A program made the position numbers and the translations under genes. A stretch of DNA of 64,000 bases from Clostridiales bacterium (lineage in GTDB: Bacteria > Bacillota > Clostridia > Christensenellales > UBA1242). Shown one piece after another: positions 3,560 through 63,347 of the stretch (its first letter is position 1; every line of letters starts with the position of its first letter). The notes under the pieces were generated by a model, which saw only the letters and a list, made by a program, of their open reading frames with translations, made no database searches and was not told the DNA's origin. The stretch is from positions 172,296-236,295 of the forward strand of contig SVHM01000002.1 in NCBI GenBank assembly GCA_015055815.1. The letters are read 5' to 3'.

Positions 3560-4280
3560 AGCACTCTCCTTGAAGCTTTGAACAAGCCCTAATTTCTTTT
3601 AAGTTTGGAAGTATCTCTTCAGGAGTTCCATATGAAGATATTTTTGAACTATCCATTACAATAACCTTATCGGCAATTTTAATAATTTTTTCTTGGTGAG
3701 AAATTATTATATTCGCAGAATTATTAACAGCTTTATTTTCATTAAATGCACTTATTAGCCCGTCAAAACTCCACAAATCAATACCCGCTTCCGGCTCATC
3801 AAACATATTAAGCCTTGCATTTCTTGCAAGAGTTGTTGCAATCTCAATCCTTTTTAATTCCCCACCCGAAAGACTATCATCAATATCTCTATCTATATAA
3901 TCTCTAGCACAAAGCCCAACTCTTGACAAGTAATTACACACTTCATTTATTTTACTATTTGTTTTTTGAGCAGTGTTAAGCAAATCTTTTACCTTTAGCC
4001 CTTTAAATCTTACAGGAGTTTGAAAAGCATATGCCAAGCCTAGTTTAGCCCTATCTGTAATAGACATAGTTGTAATATTTACGCCATCAAAATAAATTTT
4101 ACCAGAAGTGACAGGCAAAATACCCATGATAATTTTCATAAGTGTACTCTTCCCACTACCATTATGACCAGTAATAACAACCATTTCTCCATCGTTTATG
4201 GTTAAATTTATATTTTTTAATATATATTTTTGTTTGCCATCTTCTTCTACCATATAGCAAACATTATCAAGTTTTAACAT
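3552..4280 (-). CDS. sufC: SufC-like ABC ATPase
   Basis: Walker A GHNGSGKST, signature LSGGELKR, Walker B MFDEPEAGID. No permease domain. Coupled to the SufB/D-like gene. Confidence 0.75.
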   Translation of the reverse strand: MLKLDNVCYMVEEDGKQKYILKNINLTINDGEMVVITGHNGSGKSTLMKIIMGILPVTSGKIYFDGVNITTMSITDRAKLGLAYAFQTPVRFKGLKVKDLLNTAQKTNSKINEVCNYLSRVGLCARDYIDRDIDDSLSGGELKRIEIATTLARNARLNMFDEPEAGIDLWSFDGLISAFNENKAVNNSANIIISHQEKIIKIADKVIVMDSSKISSYGTPEEILPNLKEIRACSKLQGECYE

Positions 4281-4428
4281 TTTTTCTCCTTGTACAACAA
4301 TTACATTTTATATTTTTTAAAAGTTATATAAAATCTAGATATATTATACAATAAATAAACCAATTTTACTAGTATTTTTATAAATACAATTTGCTTTTAT
4401 TTTAAATTGTGATATTCTAAATATAGAT

Positions 4429-30770: not shown

Positions 30771-30846
30771 GCTGATGTGGCACAGTCGGTAGCGCACCGC
30801 CTTGGTAAGGCGGAGGTCACGGGTTCAAGTCCCGTCATCAGCTCCA
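30771..30846 (+). tRNA. tRNA-Thr (anticodon GGT)
   Basis: Cloverleaf folded by hand. Acceptor GCTGATG/CATCAGC. Anticodon arm CCGCC-TTGGTAA-GGCGG. T arm ACGGG-TTCAAGT-CCCGT. Encoded CCA. One A-C mismatch in the D stem. Confidence 0.9.
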
Positions 30847-41045: not shown

Positions 41046-42718
41046 TTACCCCCTTTGCTAATATGGGGTTTCCTTGAAATTTTTGTTTCTTCAACTTTTT
41101 CAATTTTAACTTCATCTTTTCCCTTATACTCATCATAGTTTCCACCAAACTTTGTTATTTTCTTATTATCCAACTCAAGTATTCCGGTCGCCAAATTATT
41201 AATAAAATACCTATCGTGAGAAACAAATAAAATAGTACCTTTAAATTTACTTAGCATCTCTTCAAGCACTTCTCTTGTGTAAATATCTATATGGTTTGTA
41301 GGTTCGTCAATAATTAAAAAATTAATATCCTTTTCAAGTAGACAGGCTAGTTTTACCCTTATTTTTTCACCACCACTAAGTTTACCTACCGACTTTTCAA
41401 CATCATCTTTATAGAAATCAAATTTAGCAAGTAAGCGCCTCGCTCCTTCTTCTTTAAGTTCGGTATTGTTAGTTACATATGAAAGTATACTTTCTTTTTC
41501 CTTTTCAAAAACAAGAAGTTGCGGTAAGTATCCAACAGTTATACTACTTCCTATTTTAATTTCACCCTGATAATCAATTTCACCCAATAAACTTTTGATT
41601 AAAGTAGTTTTCCCACCACCATTTTTGCCGATTAACGCCAACTTCTCTCCATGCAATATATCCAAATTAATTGAGTTTAAAATGTTTCTATCGCCATATG
41701 TCACATTTAAGCCTTTTACCTTTACAACTTCATTCCCACCCCTATTTGAAGTCTTACAAGAAAGCTTAAGCTCTTTTCGACTATTTGGTTTTGAAACAGC
41801 AACTTCTTCCATTGCATCTATTCTTTTTTGAATTGCCTTTGCCCTTCTAAACATTGTTGGATTGTCAGATTTTCTGCCCCACTCATAAAGCCTTTCAACT
41901 GCTTTTTTAAGTTCAGCAATTTTCTTTTGTTCGTTTTTGTACTGTTCAAATTGTCTTAGTTCTTTTGCTTCTTTTTCTTTTACAAAATATGAATAATTAC
42001 CTTCATATTTTTCACCGCTATCTTCAATATCAATTATCCTATTTACCACTTTATCTAAAAAATACCTATCGTGAGATACAATCACGACCCCACCCTTAAA
42101 TCTCTGTATATACGATTGAAGCCATTCAATTCTATCAATATCCAAATGATTTGTCGGCTCATCTAAAAGAAGTAATCGTGGCGACATTAAAAGTATTCGT
42201 GCAAAATGCACAATCGTTTTTTCACCACCGCTAAGGGTATTATATTTTGCTTTTCGTATATTTTCGTTTATCCTTAAACCATTAGCAACATAGTTAATTG
42301 TATTTTCTACTTCATACCCACCATCTTCTATAAACTCATTTAACATATCACTATATTTATTAATAAGTTTATCTAAATCATTTCCAGATAGTGTAGCCAT
42401 TTTTTCAGCCATTTTATCAATTGTTTTCTGTCTCTCAAATAACTTTTCAAAACAACTTTTAAATATTTCTTCAACCACTCTATCATCATCCAAATCTGGC
42501 GCTGTTTGTTCAAGATATCCAACCGTTGTATTTTTAGCTAGAGTAATCGAACCTTTAAAGTTTTCTTTACCCGCAATCATTTTTAAAATTGTACTTTTCC
42601 CACTGCCATTCCTACCAACAAGACCTACAACATCACCATCATCAACAGAAAAAGAAATGTCCGAAAAAACATCTCCAAATCCAAAATTTTTACTAACCTT
42701 AAAAACGTCCAATATCAT
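41036..42718 (-). CDS. ABC-F family ATPase (two ABC domains, no TMD)
   Basis: Walker A GRNGSGKST and GKNGGGKTT. Signatures LSGGEKT / LSGGEKI. Charged inter-domain linker. Confidence 0.9.
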   Translation of the reverse strand: MILDVFKVSKNFGFGDVFSDISFSVDDGDVVGLVGRNGSGKSTILKMIAGKENFKGSITLAKNTTVGYLEQTAPDLDDDRVVEEIFKSCFEKLFERQKTIDKMAEKMATLSGNDLDKLINKYSDMLNEFIEDGGYEVENTINYVANGLRINENIRKAKYNTLSGGEKTIVHFARILLMSPRLLLLDEPTNHLDIDRIEWLQSYIQRFKGGVVIVSHDRYFLDKVVNRIIDIEDSGEKYEGNYSYFVKEKEAKELRQFEQYKNEQKKIAELKKAVERLYEWGRKSDNPTMFRRAKAIQKRIDAMEEVAVSKPNSRKELKLSCKTSNRGGNEVVKVKGLNVTYGDRNILNSINLDILHGEKLALIGKNGGGKTTLIKSLLGEIDYQGEIKIGSSITVGYLPQLLVFEKEKESILSYVTNNTELKEEGARRLLAKFDFYKDDVEKSVGKLSGGEKIRVKLACLLEKDINFLIIDEPTNHIDIYTREVLEEMLSKFKGTILFVSHDRYFINNLATGILELDNKKITKFGGNYDEYKGKDEVKIEKVEETKISRKPHISKGGKWS

Positions 42719-42773: not shown

Positions 42774-42815
42774 TAAAAAAAACTGTATTACAATTGTAAT
42801 ACAGTCTATTTTTTA
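42774..42815. terminator. intrinsic terminator after the GLUG lipoprotein gene
   Basis: 24-nt perfect palindrome ACTGTATTACAATTGTAATACAGT flanked by A8 and a T-run. Confidence 0.7.
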
Positions 42816-46681: not shown

Positions 46682-46757
46682 GCTGATGTAGCTCAGTCGG
46701 TAGAGCAACAGATTCGTAATCTGTAGGTCGTGAGTTCGATTCTCACCATCAGCTCCA
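46682..46757 (+). tRNA. tRNA-Thr (anticodon CGT)
   Basis: Hand-folded cloverleaf. Acceptor GCTGATG/CATCAGC. D arm GCTC/GAGC. Anticodon arm ACAGA-TTCGTAA-TCTGT. T arm GTGAG-TTCGATT-CTCAC. Encoded CCA. Confidence 0.9.
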
Positions 46758-58676: not shown

Positions 58677-60971
58677 TTAACACAATTGAATTGCACGTAT
58701 ACAAATTACTGTCATATCATCTTTTGAAACATTTCCAGATAGTTCCAACGCCCTATTCAAAATTTTGTCACTTAAACTTTGCGGATTAACACAATCTTGA
58801 TGAATAACAAATGATTGTAAATTATCTCCAAAACAGTCAAATATTCCATCAGACACAATTACAACAATATCCATAGGAGAAATAAGTTTCCTAGTGATAT
58901 GCGGTTTTATATTTTCTAATATACCAACTGGCAAACCACTATTCTCAACTTCTTCTACATCACCACCATCTCTAAAAATAAAACTTTTACAACCACCCAA
59001 TTTAATAAAATCATAATACCCATTACTGCCATCAAAAACACACAAATCTATAGTAGAGTAATTCTCTTCTTCGTTAAGACTTAAAAGCTTATTTATGGTA
59101 TTTAAAATTACATCATTTTCAAAGCCTGCTTTATAAAATTTTTCAATCAAAGAAATTGTTAAAGCACTTATTTTATTTGCCCTATCACCACTACCCATCC
59201 CATCACACAAAGACACCATAAATTTGCCGTTATCAATCTTCATAATTGAATGACTATCACCACATAATTTTTTGGATAATTTATTAACTTTTGATATCCC
59301 GTATACAATATCAAACTTTGGCGAATTTATAAGAGTTAAATACATACACTCATGTATATCCGATTGCACAGACGACACAATGCACATTTTTGTTTTAAAT
59401 ATCTTCGTGACAACATGTTCAATATTTTTGACATTTATTGTATTGTTTGTGACAATTAAATTAACTTCCGTTTTATTGCTATTTACATAATACACAAAGC
59501 ATTCATGGCAAACTATATTTTTATATGCCAACTCTTCAATTATTCTTTCTGATATTTTTGTATTATTATTTAATGTTACATTCATGTCATTTTTTAATGT
59601 AGAAAGAACAGAACTTATACCAGATAATTGGTCGGCAATTATAAGCCTACTTGAATCTAAATTATTAACAGCTTTTTCATAATCTTTATAGCTAGCAATT
59701 ATATTATTAAGATAATCAATAAGACTATTAACTTTAACACAATTAGTCGAAAAAAATTGTGGCAAATCTACAAGTAATATTTTATTTTTTTCATAAGCAA
59801 TATCAACTATTGTGCTAAACGAATTATTTGCAAAGCTTCCACTTTTTCTAAAGCAATTATTGTAGTTTATACAATCTTTACACACATATGAAACAACTTC
59901 TTCTTTAAGCATTTCTTTTGCTGAATCTTTTGGCAAAGTTCCCCTTACCATATCTTTATACACATCTTTCATTTCATCAAATATAGCACCCAGTTCTTCT
60001 ACTTTGCCTATAACTTTTTTCTTGGCATTTTCTAGAATATCACTTATTATTATTTTTTCATTTGAGTTTATAATCATTTCAAGTTTTGAAAGTTTTTTCT
60101 TAGGTATTAAAATAAACGCAAGCCCGCCAATTATAATACTTATAATCTCTCCCCACGAAAGCCCACAACCAAAGACTAGACAAAATATAATGTAACCCAA
60201 TACATACGATACACACGAATATATTCTATAAGTATTTTTAAATATAATCGCACAAATTGACAAACATACAAAAAGAGATATAAACATGCTATTTGTCGAA
60301 TTTATAGAAAACGATATTCCAATTATCGAAGAAAGCAATATAGTTGTTGAAATGGGAAAGATATAATTTGAAATAAGGATAATTATCGTTGCAAAAATAA
60401 ATCCCAAATTTATAATAGATATATTTGTATAAGCCATACCCATTATAAAAATAACAAGCATAACACATCCACAAATCTTCTCATCAACATTCAGTTTAGT
60501 TATAAAACCCCTATGCACAACCGCATCTAAAAAAGACAAACTTACATATAAAAATAAAATTGATAATACTATAGATACAAGTATTGCAAGATTTACTTTT
60601 CCACTTCCTACATTCGTTAATATAAAAAAGATTTGGGATACAAGGCTCAAAACAAATATTTGCCATTTTTTAAATGTCTTTTTCTTTTTGTCTTTTAGCA
60701 TTTGAGATAGAATTAACACTGCAACAACATTTAATGCAACCAAAAAAGAATTAAATGTAAGCCCCGCTAAAACATACGACACAACATACACTAAGCCTAA
60801 AACATACCCATTAAAGTTAATATAAAACAAAGCAAATATCAACCCCACACCAAACGGAAGTAAGGGAGCATAATAAACATGAACGTTACTTATTCCGTAT
60901 AATATAATGGCAATTCCAATATATATAAGTATATTAATTTTTTTACTTTCTTTACTACAACTGATTTTCAT
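58677..60971 (-). CDS. spoIIE: stage II sporulation protein E (polytopic membrane domain + PP2C phosphatase)
   Basis: About 10 N-terminal TM helices. C-terminal CGDSHSIMKIDNGKFMVSLCDGMGSGDRA and VSDGIFD PP2C motifs. 764 aa. Confidence 0.85.
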   Translation of the reverse strand: MKISCSKESKKINILIYIGIAIILYGISNVHVYYAPLLPFGVGLIFALFYINFNGYVLGLVYVVSYVLAGLTFNSFLVALNVVAVLILSQMLKDKKKKTFKKWQIFVLSLVSQIFFILTNVGSGKVNLAILVSIVLSILFLYVSLSFLDAVVHRGFITKLNVDEKICGCVMLVIFIMGMAYTNISIINLGFIFATIIILISNYIFPISTTILLSSIIGISFSINSTNSMFISLFVCLSICAIIFKNTYRIYSCVSYVLGYIIFCLVFGCGLSWGEIISIIIGGLAFILIPKKKLSKLEMIINSNEKIIISDILENAKKKVIGKVEELGAIFDEMKDVYKDMVRGTLPKDSAKEMLKEEVVSYVCKDCINYNNCFRKSGSFANNSFSTIVDIAYEKNKILLVDLPQFFSTNCVKVNSLIDYLNNIIASYKDYEKAVNNLDSSRLIIADQLSGISSVLSTLKNDMNVTLNNNTKISERIIEELAYKNIVCHECFVYYVNSNKTEVNLIVTNNTINVKNIEHVVTKIFKTKMCIVSSVQSDIHECMYLTLINSPKFDIVYGISKVNKLSKKLCGDSHSIMKIDNGKFMVSLCDGMGSGDRANKISALTISLIEKFYKAGFENDVILNTINKLLSLNEEENYSTIDLCVFDGSNGYYDFIKLGGCKSFIFRDGGDVEEVENSGLPVGILENIKPHITRKLISPMDIVVIVSDGIFDCFGDNLQSFVIHQDCVNPQSLSDKILNRALELSGNVSKDDMTVICIRAIQLC

Positions 60972-61084: not shown

Positions 61085-63139
61085 TTAATTTTGTCTATTA
61101 ATTATAAGCTTATGTAACGCTCTAGTTTTTGCCACATACAATAACTTTAAATCATTAGCACTTTCAGTATAACTATTTTCATCATACAATATTACCGAGT
61201 CAAACTCTAGTCCTTTTGCCGTCTGCACTGTTAATATTATAACTTTATCATTTTCATAATTTAAATTGCTTTCGTCCAAAACTACCATATTCAAATTTGC
61301 CAATTTTTCACACGCAACTTTTAATTCGTCATCATCTTTACAAATAATAGCTGTTTTTGAATAACTTTCATTTAATCTTTGAACTTCATCTTTTATTATT
61401 TCAAACGAATTACCACTCACATATTCAACTTCTTCTCCATGCCTTACCACGTTATCTGCTGGCGGAATACCCAACTTTGCAAGTGTCAAATTAGCACTTT
61501 CCATAATTTCAATTGTCGTTCTGTAACTTCTCTTCAGATAAAGAAGTGAACTTTCTTTAATAATATTTTGCACATCACTCCAATCATCAATTGACTGATA
61601 TGAGTATATACCTTGTGCCACATCTCCAAATATAGAGAATGTCGCATTTGGAAATAATTTAGTAAATGCCATATACATAAGCGACGACAAATCTTGAGCT
61701 TCATCAATAAATACAACTTTTAATTTTTGATAGTATGGAAAATTTACAAACCTTGCATACAGATATAATATTGGAGCCAAATCATCATAAGCAATAATTT
61801 TTTTCTTTAAATTACCCAAAGTTGATTTTTTTAATAAATCAATATTTTCATTATCAGTAAACTTCTCAATATTCTTTATAAAATCTTCATACACTTTAAA
61901 TATATTGAAGTTCTCTTTAACATTTTTTAAATATGCAACATTTCCACTCTCAATTTTTCTTTTTAATTCAAATTTCTTATGAATATCAATGTCAGCATTA
62001 TCTATATTAGACATAGCAATCTTTTTTATTTTTTCATCATACTGAAGAGCAAGCGCCAATTTCTTTGCACCATTTGTTATAATATTTGACACTATTATAT
62101 CTTTATTATAATCAAAATACTTAAGCATTGTTTCTTTATCTAGTATCTTTACCGACTTAAATACCAAATCTTTACAAATATTATTTTTACAATAGTACTC
62201 AATGTACCTTTCAAGAATTTTAACAAATTCAAGAGAGTTTTTAAATTTCAAATAATCTATAGGCTGGCGATTTTTCATAAGTCTTGCATACTCATGATGC
62301 TTTGAAAGAATTTTGTATTCATTACCCAATATATCTGTAAACAATTTGTTTAATGAATAGCTATTTGATTTATCCGCATCCAAATCAACTAAAATATTTG
62401 AAATATAACTCATAAAAATATCATTTGGAGATAGTATCAAAAACTCTTCAGGCTTAACAGATTTTTTGTAATTGTAAATAAGATAAGAAAGTCTATGCAG
62501 TGCAACCGTTGTTTTACCCGAACCAGCAACACCCTGAACAATAACATTTTGAAAGACGGGAAGTCTTATTATTTTATTTTGTTCTTCTTGTATGGTTGAT
62601 ACAATATTTTTCAGTCTATTATCGGCACTTTGTGTAAGATAGGGCTTTAAGAAATCATCATTTGTAACCGCCTCTTCAAAATCAAATATGGAATTTACTT
62701 TGCCTTCTTTTATATCAATTTGCCTTTTTAATTTCAAATCAACAGAATATTCTTTGCCATGTGCTGAATATGTACTATTTCCTATTCTACCATTATAATA
62801 AAGGTCTGAAATAGGAGCTCGCCAGTCAACAATTTTTTCATCTGATGGAGATGAGACTTCACCAATACTCAATCTTCCAATATACCCGTTAAACTTCATC
62901 CCATCATTATTATCTTCAAAAATTAATTTAGCAAAGTATGGCTCATTAAAATGTCTTTTATATATTTCCAGTTTTTCGTCAATATCTTCAATCAGTTTTT
63001 CTCTCTCAATATTAAAGCCGTTATCCGTTTCAATTGGCATGTCTAAAGCCCGCTCTCTATCTTCTAGCAATTCTCTATGATAGTTTTCAAACATTTCCTT
63101 TAGCACTTCAAATTTCTTTTTCTCGTATTCTAATCCCAT
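61085..63139 (-). CDS. helD: HelD-like UvrD-family helicase (helicase IV type, RNAP-associated)
   Basis: N-terminal YFAKLIF...YIGRLSI...IVDWRAPISDLYY. Walker A GVAGSGKTT, VFIDEAQD, YRTT, QTAKGLEFDSVIL, YVAKTRALHKL. Start moved to 63139 (AAGGAGGG RBS). Confidence 0.8.
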   Translation of the reverse strand: MGLEYEKKKFEVLKEMFENYHRELLEDRERALDMPIETDNGFNIEREKLIEDIDEKLEIYKRHFNEPYFAKLIFEDNNDGMKFNGYIGRLSIGEVSSPSDEKIVDWRAPISDLYYNGRIGNSTYSAHGKEYSVDLKLKRQIDIKEGKVNSIFDFEEAVTNDDFLKPYLTQSADNRLKNIVSTIQEEQNKIIRLPVFQNVIVQGVAGSGKTTVALHRLSYLIYNYKKSVKPEEFLILSPNDIFMSYISNILVDLDADKSNSYSLNKLFTDILGNEYKILSKHHEYARLMKNRQPIDYLKFKNSLEFVKILERYIEYYCKNNICKDLVFKSVKILDKETMLKYFDYNKDIIVSNIITNGAKKLALALQYDEKIKKIAMSNIDNADIDIHKKFELKRKIESGNVAYLKNVKENFNIFKVYEDFIKNIEKFTDNENIDLLKKSTLGNLKKKIIAYDDLAPILYLYARFVNFPYYQKLKVVFIDEAQDLSSLMYMAFTKLFPNATFSIFGDVAQGIYSYQSIDDWSDVQNIIKESSLLYLKRSYRTTIEIMESANLTLAKLGIPPADNVVRHGEEVEYVSGNSFEIIKDEVQRLNESYSKTAIICKDDDELKVACEKLANLNMVVLDESNLNYENDKVIILTVQTAKGLEFDSVILYDENSYTESANDLKLLYVAKTRALHKLIINRQN

Positions 63140-63170
63140 AATTCCCTCCTTTATATTTGTGAAAAGCATC

Positions 63171-63211
63171 AAAAAAGGCTGACATCTAAGTTACCCTAGA
63201 ATATCAGCCTT
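63171..63211 (-). terminator. strong intrinsic terminator located inside the helD leader (candidate attenuator)
   Basis: Minus strand: AAGGCTGATAT-(15-nt loop)-ATGTCAGCCTT (11 bp, one G-U) followed by TTTTTT. Ends 31 nt before the helD ATG. Confidence 0.65.
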
Positions 63212-63292
63212 GTTGGTATTAAGTTCTGTAGCGTTACAAATATTTGTAACTAAATTATTAAGCTTATGTCGATACAAACTATATACTTTCAT
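63191..63292 (-). promoter_or_regulatory. candidate 33-codon leader ORF (MKVYSLYRHKLNNLVTNICNATELNTNKADILG)
   Basis: GAGAGG 3 nt upstream of the ATG at 63292. Its last codons encode the 5' arm of the terminator, and its TAA lies in the terminator loop. Contains the perfect 18-nt palindrome GTTACAAATATTTGTAAC (63233-63250). Confidence 0.3.
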
Positions 63293-63318
63293 ACGCCTCT
63301 CACATAAATAATAGATAC

Positions 63319-63347
63319 ATTTTATCACATTAAATAACTATTGTCAA
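63319..63347 (-). promoter_or_regulatory. sigma-A-type promoter with extended -10 at the head of the helD leader
   Basis: Minus strand: TTGACA (63347-63342), 17-nt spacer ending TGa, TAAAAT (63324-63319). Confidence 0.5.

Follow-up and report, generated by a model that had tools for sequence, protein, structure and literature searches.

What controls the synthesis of a HelD-family protein in an uncultured member of the Clostridia? We addressed this question for the helD gene in a stretch of 64,000 nucleotides (nt) of a Clostridiales bacterium (contig SVHM01000002.1 of assembly GCA_015055815.1, positions 172,296 to 236,295), referred to below as the window. An initial annotation, made from the letters of the window, had proposed that helD is preceded by a promoter, a short upstream open reading frame (uORF), and an intrinsic terminator that together form a translation-coupled attenuator. 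Comparison with the leaders of related helD genes leads us to a similar view: the leader is probably a ribosome-coupled transcription attenuator that gates helD by direct occlusion, of the type represented by tlrB and pyrBI. In this type of control, the position of the ribosome on the uORF would decide whether RNA polymerase (RNAP) reads through the terminator, and the comparative sequence data support this reading in 11 of 11 leaders.

The comparison rests on loci gathered in three ways. A scan of a genome collection returned four loci in metagenome-assembled genomes (MAGs; L001-L004) with HelD proteins 58 to 60% identical, all other HelDs reaching at most 36%. A protein search yielded more than 100 clusters of the HelD clade of 684 amino acids (aa), all from uncultured Clostridia, and DNA was taken for eleven of them, while a metagenome scan added one more locus, L081. 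This gave 11 distinct leaders (the window, L161-L164, L167, L171, and L001-L004; L165 is near-identical to L003 and was not counted), and the HelD proteins of the ten leader-bearing relatives are between 53% (L167) and 80% (L161) identical to that of the window. All 11 leaders share one design, namely an extended -10 promoter, a 5' untranslated region (UTR) bearing a Shine-Dalgarno (SD) sequence, a uORF, a terminator with its T-run, and then helD. The TG extension of the -10 element is found in every one, and the promoters of the relatives score 10 to 12 of 13 at the equivalent position.

In the window, where the promoter, leader, uORF, terminator, and helD all lie on the minus strand (Table 1), the anatomy proposed in the initial annotation was recovered, with a correction to the terminator stem. 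The promoter, TTGACA followed after 17 nt by TGaTAAAAT, scores 11 of 12 plus the TG and is the top site of our promoter scan between 61000 and 64000; its -35 hexamer begins 27 nt past the stop (63374) of an upstream membrane-protein ORF, as had been claimed. The leader, put at about 170 nt, measures ~173 nt from the predicted transcription start site (TSS), and its folding as a whole gives a z score of -4.8. The SD-preceded uORF of 33 codons, the perfect 18-nt palindrome inside it, and the SD and ATG of helD were likewise found as described, with the ATG at 63139, 31 nt past the T-run. The same holds for the claim that the last uORF codons encode the 5' arm of the terminator and that its loop holds the stop codon: codons 28 to 33 form the arm, and the TAA sits in the apical loop. 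For the terminator itself, the hairpin and the T6 tract are present, but the 11-base pair (bp) stem had to be redrawn, since RNAfold gives 9 + 5 pairs with a 1-nt bulge. The bulge is also the most likely reason that a simple scan with a loop limit of 3 to 8 nt missed this terminator, because the unbroken 9-bp stem leaves a loop of 15 nt. Directly 5' of the stem lies an A-rich tract, CAACAA (63215-63210).

We then asked what is conserved in the uORF. An SD precedes it in all 11 leaders, the start codon is ATG or TTG and lies 20 to 31 nt from the predicted TSS, and the length ranges from 27 to 36 codons; the SD-to-start spacing of 3 to 4 nt is the same as that of helD's own SD. Over the uORF spans of the 11 leaders, the reading frame contains no in-frame stop, versus 32 and 51 stops in the two other frames, in leaders that are 71 to 82% A+T. 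As a second test, the sequence from the TSS to the hairpin was shuffled and scored for ORFs that follow an SD, have 20 codons or more, and end inside the hairpin. Such an ORF appeared in 0.8 to 4.7% of the shuffles per leader (p 0.008-0.047) and is present in 11 of 11 real leaders; because the leaders share ancestry, these values cannot simply be multiplied into a joint probability. The encoded peptide behaved differently from the frame. It is not conserved across the 11 leaders except for residues dictated by the RNA stems, the leaders have no arrest motif in common, and the uORFs contain no codon runs and have a composition (K 17%, N 10%, I 10%) of the kind common to AT-rich sequence. Between the window and L161, identity is 100% in the 5' UTR with its SD and in the terminator block; the middle codons vary freely, and the sole indel is of 3 nt. 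These results suggest that selection keeps an open frame that runs into the 5' arm of the terminator and ends there, and not a peptide. The initial annotation had named lack of uORF conservation as a point that would count against it; conservation is seen for the open frame, in 11 of 11 leaders, and not for the peptide sequence.

The terminator is conserved through its base pairing. Each of the 11 leaders has a hairpin of -10 to -24 kcal/mol with T5 to T7 behind it. Of the 12 consensus pairs, 8 carry compensatory double changes, and 96.7% of cells are paired. The covariation score was not equaled in any of 500 shuffles, and slid controls fell to 27 to 55% paired, so that the covariation in relatives proposed earlier as a check is borne out. 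In every leader the stop codon of the uORF falls in the terminator loop or on the border of that loop: it begins 8 to 26 nt into the hairpin and 0 to 10 nt ahead of the 3' arm, and its first base is 17 to 29 nt from the end of the T-run. In L002, L164, and L171 the frame relative to the stem differs, yet the position of the stop is kept. No antiterminator was seen: when the leaders were folded without the 3' arm, the 5' arm paired weakly, with a gain of 0.3 to 5 kcal/mol against the -10 to -24 kcal/mol of the terminator and with no conserved partner. Inspection by eye also picked out an AATAT-like motif some 8 to 14 nt before the terminator stem in most leaders, in varying frames (window 63216-63226, minus strand), which might be an element of the pause or termination context or AT-rich background.

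Does transcription of helD have to pass this terminator? The distance from the T-run to the helD ATG is 30 to 63 nt in 11 of 11 leaders, and no promoter-like site was found in that gap; in the window, the promoter scan gave none between 63209 and 63139. There appears to be no room for a separate helD promoter past the terminator, and helD would therefore be transcribable only via read-through. The genes upstream differ from locus to locus, being divergent in L001, dnaN in L003 and L165, greA in L004 and L171, a membrane-protein gene in the window, and NUDIX, PNP, or helix-turn-helix genes elsewhere. Since these neighbors differ and one is divergent, the leader appears to go with helD, and the hairpin is more than a neighbor's terminator. 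The scenario that the initial annotation had set against its own proposal, in which the hairpin ends the upstream transcript and helD is served by a promoter downstream of it, is disfavored on both grounds.

Table 1. Features of the helD leader and gene in the window (all coordinates are positions in the window)
Feature	Coordinates	Strand	Sequence or detail	Basis
-35 hexamer	63342..63347	-	TTGACA	promoter scan and sequence
Extended -10 element	63319..63327	-	TGaTAAAAT; 17-nt spacer from the -35	promoter scan and sequence
Predicted TSS	63311..63313	-	~7 nt past the -10, near 63312	inferred from sequence
Long-range helix, 5' strand	63292..63303	-	GUGAGAGGCGUA; over the uORF SD and start	minimum free energy (MFE) fold and duplex test
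uORF SD	63296..63301	-	GAGAGG	sequence
uORF	63191..63292	-	ATG at 63292, 33 codons and TAA (63193-63191); peptide MKVYSLYRHKLNNLVTNICNATELNTNKADILG	ORF list and sequence
Palindrome (mid-uORF hairpin)	63233..63250	-	GTTACAAATATTTGTAAC; perfect, 18 nt; as RNA a 7-bp stem with a 4-nt loop	folding and repeat scan
Intrinsic terminator hairpin	63177..63209	-	-18.4 kcal/mol	RNA folding
T6 tract of the terminator	63171..63176	-		sequence
Long-range helix, 3' strand	63159..63170	-	GAUGCUUUUCAC; directly past the terminator	MFE fold and duplex test
helD SD	63144..63152	-	AAAGGAGGG	sequence
helD-family gene	61085..63139	-	684 aa	profile and structure-sequence search

We hypothesize that the leader works as follows. 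The strong extended -10 promoter would start the ~173-nt leader, and a ribosome would load on the uORF once its SD and AUG have emerged, while the mid-uORF hairpin probably pauses or paces the polymerase. The last 5 to 6 uORF codons make up the 5' arm of the terminator, and the 17 to 29 nt between the stop codon and the release point would correspond to roughly the closest approach of a terminating ribosome to a polymerase on the T-tract. If the leading ribosome occupies the last ~10 codons or the stop codon as the polymerase reaches the T-tract, the hairpin would not form and helD would be read through; with a ribosome that lags, stalls early, or is missing, the hairpin would fold and a transcript of ~140 nt would be released. 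In the read-through messenger RNA, the segment past the terminator is predicted to pair with the uORF SD and 5' UTR, which would probably stop further translation of the uORF and close the 5' end. The output would then be set by a kinetic race between the polymerase and the first ribosome, the level of helD would report how tightly translation follows transcription, and the peptide itself would not be the sensor.

Two further RNA elements fit into this scheme. A mid-uORF hairpin of differing sequence is found at the equivalent position in 8 to 9 of the 11 leaders, beginning 35 to 44 nt past the start codon and ending 20 to 27 nt before the terminator. In L161 it carries a compensatory change from A-U to G-C together with a 3-nt deletion in the loop. 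Because the sequence of the palindrome differs in every lineage and this change is compensatory, the element appears to be an RNA hairpin and not a DNA operator, and it may be an RNAP pause hairpin or an insulating one. The second element, which the initial annotation does not mention, is the long-range helix, whose duplex in the window has -19.5 kcal/mol (p = 0.002) and which is significant in 6 of the 11 leaders (p <= 0.01 each; Fisher 1.6e-7). Since its 3' strand lies past the terminator, the helix would form in read-through transcripts alone.

The design is close to that of E. coli pyrBI and pyrE, where leader ORF and terminator overlap, a polymerase paused in a UTP-sensitive manner reads through if a ribosome follows it closely, and there is no antiterminator. 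The helD leader shares with pyrBI the overlap of ORF and terminator, the lack of an antiterminator, and, on the reading proposed here, a dependence on a closely trailing ribosome and a signal that slows the polymerase and does not act through the peptide. Peculiar to pyrBI are its enterobacterial host, an ORF that runs through and past the terminator, U-rich pause sites, and a target in pyrimidine synthesis, whereas the helD uORF always stops inside the hairpin loop or on its border and shows no evident link to nucleotides. Both PMC4824070 and PMC5021804 mention pyrBI. Occlusion of this kind has been seen in experiments: a stop codon placed 5 bp before a terminator in E. coli cuts termination from ~90% to less than 10% in a translation-dependent manner (PMC4824070), and in B. 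subtilis tlrB (yxjB), a ribosome near or stalled at the stop codon covers the base of the terminator once an RNAP pause has synchronized the two (PMC6851288). With tlrB the helD leader shares an SD-preceded ORF that ends at or beside the terminator, a hairpin base that a ribosome near the stop would block with no need for an antiterminator, a pause proposed to buy the ribosome time, a downstream pairing that in the helD leader would likewise silence further leader translation, and a Firmicute host (PMC6851288). It differs in that tlrB encodes a 9-aa peptide with an RYR arrest motif, responds specifically to tylosin, uses a NusG-dependent pause, and targets an rRNA methyltransferase (PMC6851288), while the helD uORF has 27 to 36 codons, no conserved motif, and an RNAP factor as its target. 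Moreover, the downstream hairpin of tlrB hides the SD of the target gene, and the long-range helix of the helD leader would hide that of the uORF and not that of helD. The tet(M)/Tn916 orf12 leader offers a third parallel, as it is a Firmicute leader with a short ORF over terminator structures whose read-out is proposed to be the speed of translation relative to transcription; the tet(M) leader differs in being conserved, with rare codons, and in serving a ribosome-protection gene, and the role of its peptide was questioned by experiment (10.1101/2021.03.24.436905).

These comparisons also bear on the alternative that survives best, in which the same hardware answers to a ribosome-targeting antibiotic or to nascent-peptide arrest, as in erm, cat, the antibiotic resistance (ARE) ABC-F genes, tlrB, and tet(M), with a ribosome stalled on the last codons or the stop holding the 5' arm. 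Leaders that respond to antibiotics in Firmicutes do usually combine a uORF with a terminator (PMC6851288; 10.1101/2021.03.24.436905), a ribosome stalled on the last ~10 codons would block the hairpin by geometry, and some leaders have a K/R-x-K/R near the C terminus of the peptide (KTR in L002; KYK and KLK in L004). The initial annotation had drawn on the erm, cat, and ABC-F leaders, and the likeness holds for the uORF and terminator (or SD hairpin) in front of a stress or resistance gene (among the ABC-F genes vmlR, msrD, and lmo0919). It does not hold for the conserved arrest peptides and the mutually exclusive antiterminator and terminator helices of those systems, neither of which is present in the helD leader, so that tlrB and pyrBI are the closer analogues. 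The peptide drifts outside its stem-dictated residues without a shared arrest motif, there is no antiterminator for an early stall to free, and HelD acts on RNAP and not on the ribosome (PMC7749167, PMC12802891), which would leave induction by a translation inhibitor without obvious logic. Because the peptide drifts, drug arrest specific to it is unlikely, and we regard an antibiotic or arrest input as a whole as improbable. The leader likewise differs from attenuators of the trp, his, and leu type, for it has no antiterminator helix and no regulatory codon run.

An only slightly weaker contender is that the terminator is constitutive and leaky and acts as a damper or insulator: it would lower helD transcription from the strong promoter and, in the window, end the upstream transcript as well, and the uORF would set a fixed level of read-through or protect the RNA, with no regulatory input. 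The upstream gene in the window has no terminator of its own before the leader promoter, the sequence identifies no signal, and L081 (900-991) and L166 (1100-1200) manage on a plain extended -10 promoter and a UTR of ~35 nt. A damper, however, needs neither an SD, a start, and 27 to 36 stop-free codons kept in AT-rich sequence in 11 of 11 leaders nor a stop codon held inside the hairpin across differing frames, and the leader travels with helD and not with the upstream gene. We therefore think a pure damper unlikely, with little to choose between its chances and those of antibiotic arrest.

We consider it quite unlikely that a factor or ligand acting in trans decides termination, be it a protein or small molecule bound to the mid-uORF hairpin or 5' UTR or a DNA regulator bound to the 18-bp palindrome. 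The perfection of the palindrome in the window and the set position of the hairpin in most leaders would suit such a factor, as would the rifamycin-associated element (RAE) of actinobacterial helD and helR, a palindrome of 19 bp in the 5' UTR (PMC12802891). The palindrome of the window is already imperfect in L161, whose HelD is 80% identical, and the changes there are RNA-like. An Rfam 15 search of the window leader gave chance-level matches alone, and a gathering-score search with the leaders of 9 leader-bearing relatives gave nothing; there are no conserved unpaired nucleotides for a ligand pocket, and the element lies inside an ORF that is predicted to be translated. The RAE resembles the palindrome in being one of ~19 bp in front of a helD-family gene, and it is conserved, GC-rich DNA common to several rifamycin-resistance genes (PMC12802891, PMC10719064), whereas the palindrome of the window is AT-rich, unconserved, inside the uORF, and RNA-hairpin-like. 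We thus rejected both a DNA operator and an analogue of the RAE, the sequence being unconserved and the changes compensatory at the RNA level.

The other known control of helD is that of B. subtilis, where rifampicin below the minimal inhibitory concentration induces the gene via convergent promoters and the N-terminal domain of HelD protects RNAP (PMC12802891). That system is similar in its gene family, its long 5' leader, and its low basal and inducible output; its own features are an antisense promoter 45 to 100 bp downstream that interferes with the sense promoter and a leader with no described uORF or terminator (PMC12802891). A rifampicin alarm of this type, in which an antisense promoter inside the leader interferes with the sense promoter by collision or occlusion, has been demonstrated experimentally for B. 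subtilis helD (PMC12802891) and is here the least credible explanation. The window has no antisense site scoring at least 9 of 12 from the sense promoter to helD, and none is positionally conserved in the 11 leaders; the best matches in the relatives score 8 to 10, vary in position, and in many cases lie before the sense promoter. By these comparisons the leader would belong neither to the arrest-peptide/antiterminator class nor to either of the two known helD control systems. It is best filed as a candidate new family, with a new target gene, among ribosome-coupled direct-occlusion attenuators. The statement in the initial annotation that leader-peptide control of helD had not been described holds for HelD reviews, PMC12802891, and full-text literature searches, in which 'helD' also matches the English word 'held'; the part that needs amending is that inducible helD as such is now known, through the convergent promoters of B. 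subtilis.

What would the leader sense? The most coherent guess, and a tentative one, is that its input is slowed, paused, or scarce RNAP, including the effect of RNAP-targeting drugs and of nucleoside triphosphate (NTP) shortage. We favor this input because HelD recycles stalled polymerase. Carried one step further, the coupling sensor might serve as an alarm for RNAP stress, a conjecture to which we would give distinctly less than an even chance: when rifamycin- or fidaxomicin-type drugs, NTP shortage, or roadblocks hold the polymerase back, the ribosome would catch up with it or abut it at the terminator, block termination, and thereby induce HelD. An older precedent for terminators that respond to RNAP inhibition is the rifampicin-stimulated read-through of the E. 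coli rpoBC attenuator, as cited within PMC10719064.

Several points weigh against an occlusion attenuator and this input. The sequence constrains neither the direction nor the identity of the signal, and the TSS, the 3' end, and translation of the uORF are predictions in uncultured organisms. The Bacillus polymerase is thought to outrun its ribosomes; if the same were true here, coupling tight enough for occlusion might be rare and the terminator mostly constitutive. The shared ancestry of the leaders, which keeps the shuffle p values from being fully independent, has been noted above. The mid-uORF hairpins are individually weak (p = 0.01-0.45 in the nine leaders scored, L171 being outside the scoring; a Fisher combination of the nine values by hand gives ~2e-4), and none was found in L167. 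The long-range helix is absent from L002, L003, L167, and L171, so that 4 to 5 of the 11 leaders are without it. Finally, a neighbor-joining tree groups the leader-bearing HelDs in a single clade, L167 being basal, and nested in this clade are L081 and L166 (57 to 59% identity, N termini MSELD and MTDL), which have no uORF and terminator; their nested position points to secondary loss of the leader.

HelD and HelR rescue stalled RNAP and protect it from rifampicin in Actinobacteria and B. subtilis, and how their synthesis is controlled is an active question. For Clostridia, including gut organisms that meet rifaximin and fidaxomicin, a clade-wide leader-peptide attenuator of helD would answer it by a different mechanism. 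If the RNAP-stress alarm is true, it would be a third, independently evolved route to HelD beside the actinobacterial RAE and the convergent promoters of Bacillus, and would naturally report on coupling in a Firmicute-type bacterium. With no antiterminator, a drifting peptide, and a stop at about the minimal ribosome-polymerase distance, the simple design would make a clean system for questions about coupling in Firmicutes, and a part of ~170 nt is small enough for reuse in synthetic biology. Should the terminator prove constitutive, what is left is a conserved damper of expression.

The protein of the window clearly appears to be a member of the HelD family, divergent and shorter (684 aa versus 774). 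It contains UvrD-type domains and matches the NCBIfam profile HelD_BACSU with E = 3e-104 and 349.5 bits, under the curated equivalog cutoff of 419. Among proteins of solved structure, B. subtilis HelD is the closest in sequence (6WVK_H, E = 1e-69). Directly downstream of helD, in the window as in L171, lies a gene for a SpoIIE-type sporulation phosphatase (764 aa; window 58677-60971, minus strand), and the organism is therefore probably a spore-former. In the sister lineages L004 (2323-2793) and L171 (342-812), greA lies directly upstream of the helD leader, and in L166 a 93-aa protein with a GreA_GreB domain is encoded downstream of helD (4002-4283); this adjacency may reflect a functional neighborhood of secondary-channel factors.

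Outside the leader-bearing clade, the design is absent from the sister group L168-L170 and from distant HelD loci with at most 36% identity (Ruminiclostridium, Peribacillus, Cytobacillus, and gut MAGs). Two members of the sister group, L168 and L169 (1010-1200 in each; 44 to 45% identity; acpS/recX upstream), have a different conserved leader of ~190 nt, with an extended -10 element, an ATG CTT TGA mini-ORF, a C-rich hairpin (CCCC..GGGG), and T6 to T7 located 50 to 95 nt before helD. It has no Rfam match and may be a second, unrelated helD attenuator. At the helD genes of Bacillus mesophilum and Cytobacillus gottheilii (L061, L063, and L080), a long hairpin of -11 to -21 kcal/mol with T5 lies ~48 to 105 nt upstream of the start (around 2680-2740), its end 48 nt short of the start codon; these loci have no uORF in common.

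Other readings of the uORF region were tried and set aside. The uORF is not a conserved small protein, the peptides being unrelated outside the stem-encoded residues and without a Pfam match. A longer version of 45 aa that starts at GTG was discarded, its start lying upstream of the predicted TSS. Sequestration of the uORF SD and AUG by early uORF codons was weak (Fisher p = 0.025, driven by three leaders), and we make no claim for it. Antisense to the uORF runs a TTG-started ORF of 33 aa (window 63210-63311, plus strand); it lacks an SD, and most relatives have stops in the antisense frames, so that it probably arises as a by-product of the uORF.

Across the whole window, the matches to Rfam 15 at gathering score are two tRNA genes (30771-30843 and 46682-46754, both on the plus strand) and nothing else. 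Within these 64 kb, helD is the sole gene with the promoter-uORF-terminator design. A hairpin of 23 nt with -9.1 kcal/mol and a T6 tract, and without a uORF, is present at 42782-42804 on the minus strand, 64 nt before a 560-aa ORF that starts at 42718; it could be the terminator of the gene upstream or another leader element.

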